From the NCBI GenBank assembly GCA_016207165.1, contig JACQQD010000003.1, forward strand, positions 1 through 64,000: a stretch of 64,000 nt of DNA, read 5' to 3'. The position numbers and the translations under genes were made by a program. Under the pieces are notes generated by a model. The model was not told the DNA's origin, did no database searches, and saw only the letters and a list, made by a program, of their open reading frames with translations. Source of the DNA: Candidatus Micrarchaeota archaeon (GTDB lineage Archaea; Micrarchaeota; Micrarchaeia; Norongarragalinales; Norongarragalinaceae). This document shows, in pieces, positions 3-45,423 of the stretch. The stretch's first letter is position 1. Each line of letters opens with the position of its first letter.

Positions 3-167
3 GTGTCGGCGCGCGTCTGCCGCACGTGCGGGCACGTGGGATGCTGCGACTCATCCCCAAAACGCCACGCCCGGGAACACTTCAAAAAAACAGGCCACGC
101 GATTCTGTCGGACTTGAACGACTCGTGGCGCTGGTGCTATCAATGCAACGACTACGTCAAGAACTAG
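3..167 (+). CDS. UBP-type zinc finger protein (5'-partial)
   Basis: Not in ORF track. Frame 3 reads VSARVCRTCGHVGCCDSSPKRHAREHFKKTGHAILSDLNDSWRWCYQCNDYVKN*, matching the zf-UBP pattern CxxCGHVGCCDSS..H...H...GH...WCY. Confidence 0.85.
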   Translation: MSARVCRTCGHVGCCDSSPKRHAREHFKKTGHAILSDLNDSWRWCYQCNDYVKN

Positions 168-227: not shown

Positions 228-356
228 ACGCGCTGCCTGAGGCTGAGTGCGCCGGCAATGAATTTGGTACAATCGTGCCGAATTCCGCACGAATGCTAAA
301 AAAGACTTTTGTCCAGAGGTCGAGACCCCGTGAACGGACAAAACAACCACAAAAAC

Positions 357-1529
357 ATGAACGACGTCAGCCAAGCGTTTTCTCGCTTGGAGCGCGACCA
401 AGCCGTCGTTTCCGAGAATAAAGAGCTAATCCATCGGTTTGCCAACACGTGGTTGGCCAAAGGCGTCACCAACGTGCGCGCCGTCAAGCTGGTCTACACC
501 CTGCGCAAGCTGGCCGCCATTCTGAACAAGCCATTTCAAGCCGCCTCCAAAGACGACCTGATTACCTTGGTCGGCAAAATCGAGCAAAGCGGTTACGCGG
601 AGAACACCAAATACGACTTCAAAGTCGTCCTCAAAATGTTCTACCGGTGGCTTAAAGGCAACGACGAGGAGAATCCGCCGGAAACCAAATGGCTCAAACC
701 CCGTTCCAAGAAACGCGGCCAAACCCTACCCGAACAATTGCTTACCGAAAAGGAAGTGTTGGCCATGGCGCAGTCCGCCCAGCACCCCCGCGACAAAGCC
801 CTGATTATGGTTTTGTACGAATCCGGCTGCCGCATCGGCGAACTTTTGTCCTTAAGAATGAAGAATGTGGAGTTCGACCAATACGGCGCGGTTTTGCTAG
901 TGAACGGCAAAACCGGCCACCGTCGTGTCCGCATCATCAGTTCGGCGCAAGTGTTATCCAACTGGATGGAGCACTACGAAAGCACCAAAGACCCGGAAGC
1001 GTCATTGTGGCCGCCGCGGGCGTGCAGCCACCACGACACCAGCCACGCGGCAGATTACCGGTCAATCTACAAAACCCTACAAAACTTGGCGGAAAAAGCA
1101 GGCGTAAAAAAGAAGGTCTACCCGCACTTGTTCCGCCACAGCCGGGCTACCGCATTAGCCAACAAGTTGACCGAAGCCCAAATGAAGGAATACTTTGGCT
1201 GGACGCAAGGCAGCGACATGGCGGCCACCTACGTCCACTTGAGTGGACGTGATGTGGATGACGCGTTGTTGGCCCTGCATGATTTTGGCGACCAACCGAA
1301 AAAGAAGGAAAAGGCGTTGGAACTCAAAACTTGTTTGCGGTGCAAAGAGAGAAACGCGCCTTCATCCAAGTTTTGCTTCAAATGCGGCACGCCGCTGGAC
1401 GAAGCCATTGCGGCAACACTGGCCCCGCCAAAGTTGATGGATGAGGATTTGATGCGCCAACTCTTGGAGCACCCTCTGTTCAAGGAATATCTTGTTGAGA
1501 AGGCTCTCGCGAACGGGTTAGTCAAGTAA
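357..1529 (+). CDS. Tyrosine recombinase/integrase with C-terminal zinc ribbon
   Basis: Catalytic motifs ESGCRIGE (R), GKTG (K), HLFRHS (HxxR), ATYVH (Y); C-terminal CLRC..CFKC. ATG 357 preferred; ORF open from 309. Confidence 0.95.
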   Translation: MNDVSQAFSRLERDQAVVSENKELIHRFANTWLAKGVTNVRAVKLVYTLRKLAAILNKPFQAASKDDLITLVGKIEQSGYAENTKYDFKVVLKMFYRWLKGNDEENPPETKWLKPRSKKRGQTLPEQLLTEKEVLAMAQSAQHPRDKALIMVLYESGCRIGELLSLRMKNVEFDQYGAVLLVNGKTGHRRVRIISSAQVLSNWMEHYESTKDPEASLWPPRACSHHDTSHAADYRSIYKTLQNLAEKAGVKKKVYPHLFRHSRATALANKLTEAQMKEYFGWTQGSDMAATYVHLSGRDVDDALLALHDFGDQPKKKEKALELKTCLRCKERNAPSSKFCFKCGTPLDEAIAATLAPPKLMDEDLMRQLLEHPLFKEYLVEKALANGLVK

Positions 1530-1573
1530 AGTGCAGTGCGTAATCTCCTGGCTACAAATGCCTTGAAAGAGGT

Positions 1574-2527
1574 CTAGGAAGCCCTTTTCTCTCGCTGTTC
1601 CGCGATTTGTCGGGCTACCGCGTAAAACATCTTTTGGACTTTCTTGATGGTCTCGGGTTGAAGTTGGCCGTTTTGTTCGCTTGAGCCAACGTGAACGTAT
1701 GAGCCGTGCTCGGATTCTTTTCTTTCCAATTTGACACCGGCCACGCGGGGAAGCTTAGCCTCATCCAGTTCAAAGTCAAGCGGAATATTGAATCCGTACG
1801 CGCCCGGTTGAGTTTTACTGCCCTCTCTGTAAACGAGTCCAGGGACGTTGGGGTAAATCTCAAATGAGGGAAAGCCTGCTCGAAATCGATTGTCGTTGTC
1901 ATAGACCAAGCGCCGATTCTCACGGGCCTGTCCAATATACCGGCGTTTTTGGCCGACCACTTTGACCAAATCGTTGTAGTCTGACATTTCAGAAAACTCA
2001 AAGCGCACCGGCTGACCTTCGTTGTTTATTCCGGCAACACCGCCAAACGGAATGCATCGGGTAACTTCCGGTTGAATGCCCATGGCGTGAAGCGTCAACA
2101 CGGCTCGTTCAACAGCGCCGGATGAAGTAATGGGAGTGGTCATGATGGACGCGCGATTGCCTATTGGTTTGTCGATGATTCCCTCATGGACCAAATGAGA
2201 CATGGCCCGGTATAGGGCCGTTGCATGGTCGATATGGGGATCCAAATGGGCCAAAACGTTTACCCCTTCTTGCGATCCGGGAAAATGAATCATGAGGCAG
2301 CCGCCGATACTCGTGAGAAGGTGCGGCGGAGTTGAATCGGGACTAGCTGCTTGCTTTTTTGGGGCCGAACGTTTTTTCACACTTTGGGCTTTTGAGCGCG
2401 ACACGCCGTATCCGTTCTGAGAAACGATCAGTTTGGGCGAATTTGTCTCCAAAGTGTGAACATCAAGTGTTTGACGCTGGACTTCATACGGTTTCGGTCT
2501 AAACCATTGACGAAAAAAATCAAACAT
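1574..2527 (-). CDS. Hypothetical protein, possible CheD/CNF1/NTAN1-like Cys-His amidohydrolase
   Basis: Long ORF, ATG 2527 (MFDFFRQW); motif TSIGGCLMI...VLAHLDP. Confidence 0.55.
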   Translation of the reverse strand: MFDFFRQWFRPKPYEVQRQTLDVHTLETNSPKLIVSQNGYGVSRSKAQSVKKRSAPKKQAASPDSTPPHLLTSIGGCLMIHFPGSQEGVNVLAHLDPHIDHATALYRAMSHLVHEGIIDKPIGNRASIMTTPITSSGAVERAVLTLHAMGIQPEVTRCIPFGGVAGINNEGQPVRFEFSEMSDYNDLVKVVGQKRRYIGQARENRRLVYDNDNRFRAGFPSFEIYPNVPGLVYREGSKTQPGAYGFNIPLDFELDEAKLPRVAGVKLERKESEHGSYVHVGSSEQNGQLQPETIKKVQKMFYAVARQIAEQREKRAS

Positions 2528-2983
2528 CGAAGATTTCAATTGAGTCGGGAATAATAAAACCGCGGTTTTTGTTGAAAGTAAGATAGGTTCAAGATAGGCA
2601 TAGAGAAATTCGTAGGATTCAAAAACGCCAAACACGAGCCGCCAGCATAGCGTCAGGCTAAGATTACGTGCCTTTTTCGTGGCATTTCAATAAAAAGCCG
2701 TTCACGAAAAAACGCGGTTTTTCATTCGTGAAGATTACGTGAAACAGACTTGGATAGACCGACAGACAGGTAGAAATAAATTCGTAGGAACGAAAAACGC
2801 CGAATTCAAGGGCCCAATGCCAGTTCAGGGGCGGTTTCCGTGGGCAACCCGTGGATTTTCTATAAAATCCAACCCGCGGGTTGCACGCGTTTTCAACCCG
2901 TGGAGAACTCGTGGAAAGTCCAAGGAAAAGCGCTAAAAATCCAAAACCAAAGACATATATATTGAAATATAGTAGGATATACT

Positions 2984-3220
2984 ATGTCGGATTTGACGAC
3001 AATATTGGTGCGTGGAGAGGAAAAAAAAATGCTTGAAGACGCGCGAAACAAGCTCATCGGTGCTGGCACAGATCGCCTACCTAAACCAGTAATCAATCAC
3101 CTCAAACGTCAAGGATTTGACGAGGAAAAAATCAAAAAACTAACTCGCGGCGTTATCGTGTCTATTGGTTCCGCCGCCATCGAGTATTTGCTTGAACAAG
3201 ACCAGGAGGAAAAAGTATGA
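2984..3220 (+). CDS. Small putative ribbon-helix-helix DNA-binding protein
   Basis: 78 aa; N-terminal strand TTILV followed by helices; AT-rich TATA-like sequence upstream; ATGA overlap with next gene. Confidence 0.55.
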   Translation: MSDLTTILVRGEEKKMLEDARNKLIGAGTDRLPKPVINHLKRQGFDEEKIKKLTRGVIVSIGSAAIEYLLEQDQEEKV

Positions 3221-4263
3221 ACGCGAACACATCAACGTATCCCCAATACGTACCGAACCAGGCACACCACTATTATGAGCAAGAAATCCGGAAAACAGGA
3301 CACCCAACTTTCAAAATTCCGCATCAAGTCTTCGAGTTAGCGAAGGATACAAACCTGCAAAAACTCAAAAAAATTCTGGAAACCCCAGGATACCCCGCGC
3401 ATTTCCAAAACGAATGTGCAAAGGAACGAAATCTCAAGGCAGATGACGCCCTCGAGACAATGCTAGAATACCAATTCCAAAACGACGTGAAGGGTTTACA
3501 GTCAAGTCAAAGCCTTCAGCTTGTCGACATGGCAATTCAATCTGGGTTCACGTGGATCAAAATTCCAACGCGTACAAACGACATCAAGCAATTTAAGTCA
3601 ACGGTTGATATGGCAATCCCTCGAATTGAGGAACATGGCCTAAAACCGTTTATTCACATCGACCTTGGAGATAGCACAAAGCTTTTCCAAGCCAAACTGG
3701 AGCATGCTTTGGAAACCTCGGCAACCGGCATCTCATTCAAGTACCGTTCGCCAACCACGCACAAGCTGAATTATCAACGGGTAACGATGCTCGAAACGAC
3801 GAAAATCCTTCAATTATCCGGAACCCAGCGGCGGCATAAAAGGCTCGATCCACATACCTGCATGCCGTTGTTACTTGGACTCGTTTTCGATACAGTAACC
3901 CTTTACAGTCATAGACCCTATCTAGGTCTCCCGGACGTTCCGATTGAAAATGCGGATATCTTTTCAGAAGCGCACGGCGGGTACTACACGCTGCCTGAAT
4001 GGATCCAAAAATTGGGAAATGAAGAATTTATCACCAACACCAACCACCCACTCCTTACGGAACCAGGTTATGAAGTCGCCGAATTACTGCAAAATGAGCA
4101 TGAATGCAATCGACTCAATGCGACACTGAAATCCCACGAAACACTCGCATTACAGCAAGAATTCCAAAACATCGCTTCGGCTAAAAGAAAAAACAAGTTG
4201 GACGAATACGTTAGCGAAAAACCACTTCTCGCGACAGCGTTTCCGTATTTAAACCCCGTCTAA
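3217..4263 (+). CDS. Hypothetical protein, divergent tRNA-guanine transglycosylase-like TIM barrel
   Basis: 348 aa; segments KTGHPTFKIP, KPFIHID, TGISF, LQLSGT, LVFDTVT and C-terminal SHETLALQQEFQNI...LDEYVSEK parallel the TGT layout; DSGG and CxCxxC motifs not seen. Confidence 0.45.
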   Translation: MNANTSTYPQYVPNQAHHYYEQEIRKTGHPTFKIPHQVFELAKDTNLQKLKKILETPGYPAHFQNECAKERNLKADDALETMLEYQFQNDVKGLQSSQSLQLVDMAIQSGFTWIKIPTRTNDIKQFKSTVDMAIPRIEEHGLKPFIHIDLGDSTKLFQAKLEHALETSATGISFKYRSPTTHKLNYQRVTMLETTKILQLSGTQRRHKRLDPHTCMPLLLGLVFDTVTLYSHRPYLGLPDVPIENADIFSEAHGGYYTLPEWIQKLGNEEFITNTNHPLLTEPGYEVAELLQNEHECNRLNATLKSHETLALQQEFQNIASAKRKNKLDEYVSEKPLLATAFPYLNPV

Positions 4264-4791
4264 AAAAAGTTGACGTGAGCAGGAACGACAGTTCGATATC
4301 AAAAGTTTGGCGCTTGGCACGCTCCATAGAATCCCAATAGGGCTTTCCGTTAAGCCAAAATAAGCCTCGGAGTTTTTCTCGTTTTTCGGGTGGTTTGGAC
4401 CAAAAATTGCAAGCTCGATAAGTATCCTCCCAAACTTCCATCTCACGCACTAAGTCCGAAAAAATCAAACCGCCCAAGACCAGCACCCCCTCACGAAGCG
4501 ATCCTATAACGGAGCACTCCTTTAAAAGAAGTCCGCAATGAATGAACCCGAATTTGGGTGCATTTGTACGAACCCTTAGGGCAGTCCTTAACTACATCAA
4601 AACGCCTTCAGGCCGTAAGACCGCCCCGGAACGGTTCATGCCTTCAGATTGAAGTAGAGCGCAGGGGGTTGGCTTTCCGTTTGTTCTTCCGTCAAACGCC
4701 TGAGATGGAGAACATTAAAAAGCCAGTTTTCTTTGGGCAAAGCGGACAAAAGAGGATTTCGTGCCAAGTGCACACTGAGCCGCTGTGAGAG

Positions 4792-4866
4792 TGCTCTAGC
4801 CGGGATTTGAACCCGGGTCGCCGGCTTGAAAGGCCGATATCCTTGACCGTGCTAGACGACTAGAGC
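4792..4866 (-). tRNA. tRNA-Glu(UUC), intronless, CCA not encoded
   Basis: Reverse complement GCTCTAGTCGTCTAGCACGGTCAAGGATATCGGCCTTTCAAGCCGGCGACCCGGGTTCAAATCCCGGCTAGAGCA folds as a cloverleaf with anticodon TTC. Confidence 0.97.
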
Positions 4867-4906
4867 AAAGAAAATAAGGGAACTAAGTGGTGCGGAAAAG
4901 GCTTTT

Positions 4907-5566
4907 TTAGAGTATTGCTTTTGCCTTCAACGCGTCCCACACGCGTTCGTGGATGGCTTTGGGCGGCAAAAGTTGGTCGCCTTCAACCGTCTTGATCACA
5001 AGCCAGTTACGTTCTCGAGCAAGTTGTAAGTAGTTCTCATAAACTCTGCTTTCAAATTCAGTATCCAATTCATGAATATCAATTTTTGTTAGTGGATTCT
5101 TCTGTTTGCGGGCAGCATAGAGGGCACGAGTTACGTTACGGGGAACGTCCAAAAAGATAATCGCGTCTGGGCGTGGCAAATTCTTTTCTATTAAGTCAAT
5201 CCACTTCCAGAGTGCTCTTTTTTCTTTTTCATCTGAAACCAAAGCACCTTGGAATGCCAAGTTGGCTGGAGTGTAGCGATCCAGGATGACACAATCATAC
5301 TCCGCTAGAGCCATTCGTATTTTCTCTGCGTTGCAGTATCGGTCCAGTGCGTAAAGAACAACCGCTTCATGTATACGGTCTTCTTTCTTGCCAAGTGCAC
5401 CAGAAAGATACTCGGCAATCAATTGGCCTACTGGAGATGAATAATCTGGAAAATAAAATGCGGTTGCCGTTTTGCCATTTTTTTCTAATGCAGCAAGCAT
5501 AAGCTGTGTTTGAGTCAGTTTGCCGGCGGCGCTCAATCCTTCAAACACGATGAGTCTTCCAGTCAT
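4907..5566 (-). CDS. tmk: Thymidylate kinase
   Basis: LIVFEGLSAAGKLTQ P-loop, FPDY, VILDRY, PDAIIFLDV; start at ATG 5566. Confidence 0.92.
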   Translation of the reverse strand: MTGRLIVFEGLSAAGKLTQTQLMLAALEKNGKTATAFYFPDYSSPVGQLIAEYLSGALGKKEDRIHEAVVLYALDRYCNAEKIRMALAEYDCVILDRYTPANLAFQGALVSDEKEKRALWKWIDLIEKNLPRPDAIIFLDVPRNVTRALYAARKQKNPLTKIDIHELDTEFESRVYENYLQLARERNWLVIKTVEGDQLLPPKAIHERVWDALKAKAIL

Positions 5567-45304: not shown

Positions 45305-45423
45305 GTGACAGCAGCAACCCGCGTTCCCACCTGAAAAGGCAGTACTGGCAGGGTCGTACGGGGGCTTTGCTTCTGTGTTCGGAAAGGGAACAGGCGTTAC
45401 CCCCCGCCTATGGCCGCTGTCGT
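45305..45423 (-). rRNA. rrf: 5S rRNA (stand-alone)
   Basis: Reverse complement GACAGCGGCCATAGGC...CCCTTTCCGAACACAGAAGCAAAGCC...AGTACTG...GGGAAC...GCTGCTGTC; terminal helix pairs; ends approximate. Confidence 0.93.

Follow-up and report, generated by a model that had tools for sequence, protein, structure and literature searches.

The tRNA-guanine transglycosylase (TGT) fold was long known only in tRNA-modifying enzymes; DpdA and Cap10 later revealed its reuse for DNA modification and defence. The fold also occurs in QTRT2, the non-catalytic TGT subunit of eukaryotes and partner of catalytic QTRT1, and we know of no toxin of a toxin-antitoxin (TA) system that is built on a TGT barrel. Here we describe two overlapping genes on integrated mobile DNA of a Candidatus Micrarchaeota archaeon. 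The larger gene encodes a 348-amino-acid (aa) protein that structure prediction and profile comparison place in a very divergent branch of the TGT superfamily. The stretch analysed, referred to as the window, is the first 64 kb of contig JACQQD010000003.1 from a 1.27-Mb, 90%-complete host genome (G000). An original prediction, made from the letters of the window alone, had proposed that a small gene overlaps a TGT-like gene by ATGA, downstream of repeats. The positions of the open reading frames (ORFs) confirmed the overlapping 78-aa and 348-aa genes:

2592 to 2983, no strand assigned: repeat-bearing region 5′ of the small gene; its start overlaps the 5′ end of a divergent 353-aa ORF.
2984 to 3220, plus strand: small gene, 78 aa, with a strand-helix N-terminus and a C-terminal helix rich in small residues; putative DNA-binding regulator or neutraliser.
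3217 to 4263, plus strand: large gene, 348 aa; predicted degenerate TGT-superfamily protein with a triosephosphate isomerase (TIM) barrel, as judged from the model of its relative P0006 and a profile-profile match.

The ATG of the large gene (3217-3219) and the TGA of the small gene (3218-3220) form the common ATGA, and a ribosome-binding-like GGAGG lies 10 nucleotides (nt) 5′ of the large-gene ATG. At the local composition, the chance of a stop-free run of 348 codons is about 1.6e-8.

A scan of 1.84 billion representative proteins identified six relatives of the large protein in addition to the window protein itself (23-31% identity, E values of 3e-28 to 2e-4). The relative P0006, which is connected to the window protein by phmmer (E 1.9e-4) as well as by family profiles, was chosen for its fuller family features, and its fold was predicted with 14 family sequences as input, none of them a TGT. 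The resulting model reached a predicted local distance difference test (pLDDT) value of 87.3 and a predicted template modelling (pTM) score of 0.89. It consists of a (β/α)8 barrel with an N-terminal β-hairpin and a C-terminal zinc-binding subdomain that can be superposed on solved TGTs. When the model was compared with the PDB by Foldseek, all 50 structures among the matches listed were TGT-family proteins (best E 2.3e-12). Similarly, VIA-align gave Z scores of 25.3 for archaeosine TGT (1iq8; 309 aligned, root-mean-square deviation 3.7), 24.1 for bacterial TGT (3unt) and 23.0 for QTRT2 (6fv5; 312 residues aligned). The corresponding values were 16.6 for DpdA (7ui4), 15.6 for Cap10 (9ntn_B) and at most 14.1 for other TIM barrels.

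Profile-profile comparison pointed in the same direction. With hhalign, a profile of 17 family sequences matched one of five TGTs plus the DpdA-like protein of locus L027 at 95.5% (E 1.6e-8, 219 columns), and the family profile matched the five TGTs alone at 74.8% (E 2.6e-5). As controls, reversed TGT gave P 0.14 and seven phage DpdA sequences gave P 0.007. The alignments of 15, 16 and 17 sequences used in this work take in one protein of the unpublished genome G197, which neither of the two folds includes. Together, the modelled fold and the profile match show that the 348-aa protein represents an unannotated, very divergent branch of the TGT superfamily. The divergent TGT-fold protein of the original prediction is thus supported at the level of the family, by the P0006 model, Foldseek and the profile match.

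Conventional searches did not reveal this relationship. When the pair and its neighbours were compared with Pfam, NCBIfam, PHROGs and PADLOC, nothing but the neighbouring integrase matched. With the TGT model of Pfam (PF01702, gathering cut-off 26.3 bits), the window protein gave no match at E ≤1, and one of seven family members gave a match below the cut-off (E 0.15). NCBIfam matched none of 14 family members, PDB sequence searches with two family profiles returned no TGT, and a tblastn search of phage records with P0006 returned no match. Protein searches by word index yielded just the query at first, and then three and two proteins. The viral structures of BFVD yielded weak matches only (E 3e-6, TM about 0.4). 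In the ESM Atlas, which we treat as a source of leads only, the large protein fell nearest to unnamed archaeal clusters (0.92) and to a viral cluster of which 15% is TGT (0.82), with Methanobacteriota as the group indicated.

The original prediction had also read a TGT motif order from the window protein by eye. Most of this order stood, as KPFIHID, TGISF, LQLSG and VFDTV map to barrel strands 5 to 8 of the P0006 model, and the C-terminal stretch with its His and helix lines up with the zinc-binding His and the final helix of TGT. The N-terminal T.H...P motif had been misplaced: the TP motif of TGT type aligns with Pro9 of the window protein. The hairpin that precedes this motif is missing, because the window protein starts about 25 residues late with only 7 codons open upstream.

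PMC10164549 reports three Asp residues that do not vary among TGT and DpdA proteins, two of which abolish activity when changed to alanine. At the column of the nucleophile (E. coli D264, DpdA D256, end of strand 8), none of 16 family members has an acid; Ser or Thr is found in 12 and Ala or Gly in 4. The window protein has Thr228 at this column and retains the Asp of the adjacent 'GID' as Asp225. The base-binding Asp column (E. coli D143, DpdA D130, end of strand 4) is occupied by Asp or Glu in 14 of the 16, and by Thr118 in the window. The general acid/base (E. coli D89, DSGG, after strand 3) falls outside the confident hhalign block. The window protein contains no DSGG, and a semi-conserved Asp two to three residues past strand 3 (Asp90 in the window protein) could correspond to D89. 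The CxCxxC...H positions align with those of TGT and are complete in P0006 and in the G197 and G227 members and partial in others. The window protein has no Cys in the zinc stretch and has His307 at the aligned His column; the statement that it is missing both DSGG and CxCxxC was therefore correct. The closest relatives, P0002-P0004, are also without the zinc Cys, indicating that part of the apparent decay is a subfamily trait. Thus the family shares with TGTs the fold (for P0006), collinear motifs, the base-binding column and, in some members, CxCxxC plus His. It differs from them in having neither an acid nucleophile nor a DSGG-type motif, in being borne by mobile DNA and in escaping Pfam.

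We also searched for the genes of canonical 7-deazaguanine metabolism. None of 31 genomes (G000 and 30 relatives) yielded a PF01702 match in a search whose control was positive in 14 of 14 cases; in the phylum sample, 6 of 201 genomes yielded one. The QueC model PF06508 gave only partial PP-loop matches in G000, of 19.6 bits (positions 2-68 of 210) and 18.6 bits; QueD, QueE and FolE were not searched. Since the family has no acid nucleophile, G000 and the 30 relatives searched have no PF01702 gene and G000 has no full-length QueC, canonical 7-deazaguanine exchange is unlikely. We infer that the 348-aa protein would be unable to carry out canonical Asp-mediated exchange of guanine or 7-deazaguanine. 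The DpdA-type base exchange that had been put forward is likewise improbable, the window copy being also without the base-binding Asp and the zinc ligands. The rarity or absence of PF01702 in G000, its relatives and the phylum sample suggests that these archaea may have no archaeosine in their tRNA.

A TGT fold that no longer catalyses exchange has a precedent in QTRT2, and the Z score of 23.0 between QTRT2 and P0006 fits a similar fate for this family. With its catalysis lost, the barrel could act for the element as an accessory or regulatory factor that binds DNA or RNA. All members are without the nucleophile, many are also without the zinc motif, and the family is very poorly conserved, all of which is consistent with such a pseudoenzyme. 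However, five acids at strand ends on the catalytic face of the barrel are kept by most members, which suggests a working pocket. Moreover, unlike QTRT2, the family resides in prokaryotic mobile DNA, and no catalytic TGT partner was found in the relatives searched. We consider a role confined to binding unlikely.

The window copy is itself unusual within the family. It is the sole one of 16 sequences without an acid at the Glu39 column (P0006 numbering, as for the next two), and it is among the two of 16 that have no acid at the Asp139 column and the four of 16 that have none at the Asp277 column. Of the five conserved acids, at the P0006 columns Glu39, Glu64, Asp139, Asp252 and Asp277, it has lost three; the conserved polar residues Glu40, Lys160, Asp225, Glu261 and Glu308 are retained. 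These losses raise the possibility that the family is functional and that this copy is decaying in an old, perhaps immobile element, a reading that would be compatible with any view of the family. The missing N-terminal hairpin, a cassette gene of about 55 aa that is undetectable in the window and the lack of any empty-site or circle-junction contig in four sequencing runs are in keeping with decay. Against it, nothing interrupts the 348-codon frame, its ribosome-binding site is good and the ATGA overlap has been preserved. The integrase and the small gene are likewise intact, and the loss of the zinc Cys is common to P0002-P0004. We regard a window-specific relic as quite unlikely.

Searches of 401 genomes each found family members in 6 for the phylum sample and in 8 for the class sample, G000 counted. 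The host's own taxonomic family contributed none (0/20 and 0/25 genomes). Members in G236 (79%, E 1.5e-5) and G227 (96%, E 3.3e-9) were added by hhalign. The small protein of the window shares 38% identity with the protein encoded immediately before the G243 member (E 2e-15), and a profile of two sequences detected five clear homologs in 401 genomes (G000, G243, G281, G236 and G177). Six weaker places, at E 4e-4 to 8e-3, were left out of this count. Four of the five clear homologs immediately precede a family member, and each of the four overlaps it, three of them by ATGA. This agrees with the proposed linkage of small and large gene in genomes other than G000. The fifth, in G281 (L039, G281:C32, 894-1842), overlaps a DUF3800 gene (E 8.1e-18), indicating that one small partner occurs with a different large partner. 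Five other family members (in G234, G225, G264, G226 and the unpublished G197) are preceded by a different gene of about 95 aa, whose product has a winged-helix look by eye and no Pfam match. The ESM Atlas returned nothing above 0.75 for the small protein.

Two further small genes recur in the cassette. One encodes a protein of about 55 aa, one copy of which scored 20.1 bits on DUF2080 (E 5.5e-4; cut-off 21.5). Validation of a DUF2080 antitoxin elsewhere is described in PMC10440598. A remnant of this gene was sought upstream of the 91-aa ORF that follows the pair, and the candidate was dropped (best E 0.8). The other recurring gene encodes 65-106 aa, and the 91-aa ORF of the window belongs to its family: a hidden Markov model built without the window sequence matched frame 4211-4591 of the minus strand (E 6.8e-6). 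By BLASTP the 91-aa ORF matched its G236 counterpart (E 0.001) and gave no alignment with its G243 counterpart.

Inspection of the region upstream of the small gene revealed repeats, as had been noticed in the original prediction, and they are real and modest. Three copies of C[CT]CGTGGA fall within a 68-bp stretch (at 2848, 2897 and 2908), compared with 46 matches in all 64 kb. The Poisson probability of such a cluster is about 2e-5 per 68-bp stretch and about 0.02 across the window. In addition, an 11-nt word at 2660-2670 has a second copy at 2731-2741, a 41-nt repeat of 78% identity is present at 2592 and 2764, and an AT-rich, TATA-like stretch was seen by eye about 20-30 nt 5′ of the small-gene ATG. 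The repeats may constitute a putative operator. One contig each of runs X2, X3 and X4 skips 69 bp between 2807 and 2877; the sides of this junction are just 28 nt and the observation is weak, and the skipped form may be a repeat-number variant.

The pair is carried by a 4.6-kb element integrated at the 3′ end of a tRNA-Glu gene. The element contains an integrase, a 353-aa ORF, the pair and the 91-aa ORF, and its remaining features and flanks are as follows:

214 to 227, no strand: left attachment site (attL), the left copy of an exact 14-bp direct repeat, identified as an identical 14-mer.
309 to 1529, plus strand: tyrosine integrase, 406 aa, with a TTG start and a C-terminal zinc ribbon, identified by Pfam, NCBIfam and PHROG.
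1574 to 2635, minus strand: ORF of 353 aa, divergent from the pair, with no family match.
4211 to 4486, minus strand: ORF of 91 aa, convergent with the large gene and overlapping it by 53 nt at its 3′ end; member of the 65-106-aa cassette family.
4790 to 4803, no strand: right attachment site (attR), the right copy of the 14-mer, equal to the 3′ end of tRNA-Glu.
4791 to 4866, minus strand: tRNA-Glu (UUC), the integration target, identified by ARAGORN and by the Rfam tRNA model (60.6 bits).

On both strands of the 64-kb window the 14-mer occurs at 214 and 4790 only, and the chance of such a match between the flanks is about 7e-4. The integrase matched Pfam Phage_integrase (E 1.9e-20) and a DZR/Zn-ribbon model, the XerA-type NCBIfam model (E 7.8e-31, under the equivalog cut-off) and a PHROG integrase (E 1.6e-26). 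The G+C content is 0.42-0.50 over approximately 1400-5400, compared with 0.55-0.63 from 5400 on, and is 0.52-0.55 at the integrase end (1-1400). The integrated state was present in contigs of four DNA runs from one groundwater study, and no empty site or circle junction was found in the contigs of those runs. No RNA runs holding the locus are listed. The 353-aa ORF had no family match in Pfam, NCBIfam, PHROGs or PADLOC, and a homolog was present in 1 of 150 related genomes (G401, 42-48% identity, at a contig end). Its equation with a 371-aa neighbour in G243 was dropped, the two having no similarity.

In the contigs of runs X1 and X3, 40 extra letters lie inside tRNA-Glu at window position 4826/4827, and these may reflect an intron-bearing or foreign copy of the tRNA. 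Sequencing depth over tRNA-Glu was 5 to 30 times that of the flanks, indicating that this tRNA is common to many organisms. A 54-aa Cys/His-rich ORF lies just outside attL (3-167, plus strand), and a 5S rRNA gene is present far downstream (45306-45421, minus strand; Rfam 70.1 bits).

Mobile DNA also surrounds the family in other genomes. A SWIM plus DDE_Tnp_1 transposase of one family is adjacent to seven of the ten loci; identity among the six that were compared is 35-57%, and the seventh (G227) matched the transposase profile. The large proteins are only 17-36% identical. Pairwise scores of transposases and large proteins are correlated (Spearman 0.66; the pairs, which include G197, are not independent). 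Together with the 14-bp repeat and the integrase of the window, these loci bear out the earlier suggestion that the pair is on mobile DNA. The transposase association and the correlated scores would also suit a binding-only accessory factor. However, 81 of 401 genomes contain the transposase family, frequently as multiple copies and fragments (L050-L079 are the class loci), and cassette genes were found at 5 of its best 30 loci, so the transposase does not need the cassette. The cassette is thus cargo or a frequent neighbour rather than transposition machinery, and the SWIM plus DDE_Tnp_1 family looks like a cargo-carrying transposon family. Targeting to tRNA genes is likewise not general: apart from the window, a tRNA gene lies next to the cassette at just one of six other loci scanned (that of unpublished G197), and the idea was dropped. 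Terminal inverted repeats around the transposase-linked cassettes were also sought and dropped, as L011 alone yielded a good pair (18 nt, 94%) and the loci showed no consistent pattern.

N6_N4 DNA methylase genes lie beside the transposase in three cassette loci (G234, G197 and G227) and in two cassette-free loci (L056 and L065), and the neighbours of cassette loci also include an Eco57I-type methylase and an AbiEii toxin-domain gene. The latter (L009 570-1283, minus strand; E 9.4e-10) is 0.5 kb from the G234 member. Neighbours of the transposase loci are varied overall, with N6_N4 methylases at L056, L065 and L059. The methylases could mean that the cassette is DNA-modification cargo, in which the TGT-fold protein alters bases of element or host DNA with other catalytic residues or another substrate, as anti-restriction, and the small gene is its controller. 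The acids kept on the catalytic face by most members would suit such an enzyme, as would the true DpdA-like gene that lies beside a methylase in G156. DpdA is likewise a TGT-fold protein found on mobile or defence DNA, sometimes beside methylases. However, the family is nearer to tRNA TGTs (Z 23-25) than to DpdA, in the structural scores as in the profile control with phage DpdA, and it does not keep all three Asp residues. The cassette has no Dpd neighbours, and the DpdA models of PADLOC matched none of 18 family members, but did match the G156 gene. The lack of an acid at the nucleophile column in all 16 members, of the base-binding Asp in the window copy, of full-length QueC in G000 and of PF01702 in the 31 genomes also argues against DNA modification, to which we assign a low probability.

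The G156 gene is of interest in its own right. It encodes a 420-aa DpdA-like TGT (L027, G156:C1:275222-279019) with an intact CxCxxC, matching PF01702 (E 1.5e-10) and PADLOC DpdA (E 3.8e-6), and it sits between an N4/N6-type DNA methylase gene and a 261-aa gene. L027 is a candidate archaeal DNA deazaguanine system.

Our tentative preference, held at somewhat less than even confidence, is that the pair forms a module of the TA or defence-island kind, in which a regulator and possible neutraliser accompanies an effector as cargo of mobile elements. This reading draws on the overlap of the small and large genes, the swapping of small partners, the pairing with DUF3800 and the patchy, mobile spread of the family among methylase genes and an AbiEii gene. 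Like type II TA systems, the cassette combines a small, DNA-binding-like gene with a larger gene that it overlaps, its small partner can be swapped and its distribution is mobile and patchy; unlike them, it has no match to a TA family. Cap10 of type IV CBASS offers a precedent for a TGT-like barrel in a conflict system, but its match to P0006 is weak. Moreover, Pfam and PADLOC scans of chosen neighbour genes, which included no direct search for those families, showed no CD-NTase or QueC-like neighbour.

Several observations weigh against the regulator-effector module or against its TGT component. The window protein's own model (pLDDT 65.2, confident for approximately residues 40-200) does not single out TGT: TGT-family chains scored level with other TIM barrels (Z 11.4 for DpdA, 11.9 for the top match). 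The ranks were 3 for DpdA, 6 for QTRT2 and 15 and 23 for two TGTs, unseparated from the rest, and Foldseek returned generic TIM barrels only (E ~1e-3). At the P0006 positions Arg33, Thr38, Glu39, Asp139 and Asp277 the window copy departs from the family, and it could be inactive. Conservation within the family is confined to a few positions (2 columns are invariant among 13 sequences), which fits a binding-only protein too, and the methylase neighbours fit DNA modification equally well. The small gene had originally been called ribbon-helix-helix (RHH)-like, a likeness of appearance only, since none of five small-family members matched an RHH model in Pfam at E ≤5, and the small protein matched no RHH or antitoxin family. 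Finally, PADLOC, TA and defence models matched no window protein and none of 14 further cassette proteins, and a PADLOC search of 14 family members gave a single match, to LmuB in one of them (E 0.015). The outcomes that the original prediction had named as fatal to it were not seen: P0006 matched TGT structures, and homologs were linked to the small gene and to mobile elements.

If the pair is a regulator-effector module, the acidic pocket of the barrel would use a different chemistry, such as hydrolytic removal of the base, to bind or attack a nucleobase of tRNA or DNA. Translation would run through the ATGA overlap, and the small protein would repress the operon at the upstream repeats. The window copy may be attenuated, having lost three of the five conserved acids. 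A more specific proposal would make the cassette a new system of DPANN mobile elements, serving conflict or maintenance. Its TGT barrel would excise nucleobases, or exchange bases in a new way, on tRNA or DNA, with the nucleophile Asp replaced by Ser/Thr or water. Interchangeable small partners would control it, and a second small pair (the DUF2080-like and 65-106-aa proteins) would accompany it. We consider this version unlikely.

What is new here is a TGT-superfamily branch without the nucleophile that is carried by Micrarchaeota mobile elements together with a small upstream gene and a 65-106-aa gene; we found no description of this family in the literature searched. The family would be a further offshoot of the TGT fold, without the catalytic Asp nucleophile and undetected by Pfam, NCBIfam, PHROGs and PADLOC. 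Its carriers are integrase and transposase elements of genome-reduced archaea, and the searched genomes of the host's own lineage are without TGT. If most members are active, their chemistry would be one not described for the TGT fold, and if they are inactive, the family would be a prokaryotic counterpart of the QTRT2-type pseudoenzyme. In either case, a small integrative element and what looks like a cargo-carrying transposase family have been defined in Micrarchaeota, whose mobile DNA is poorly known.

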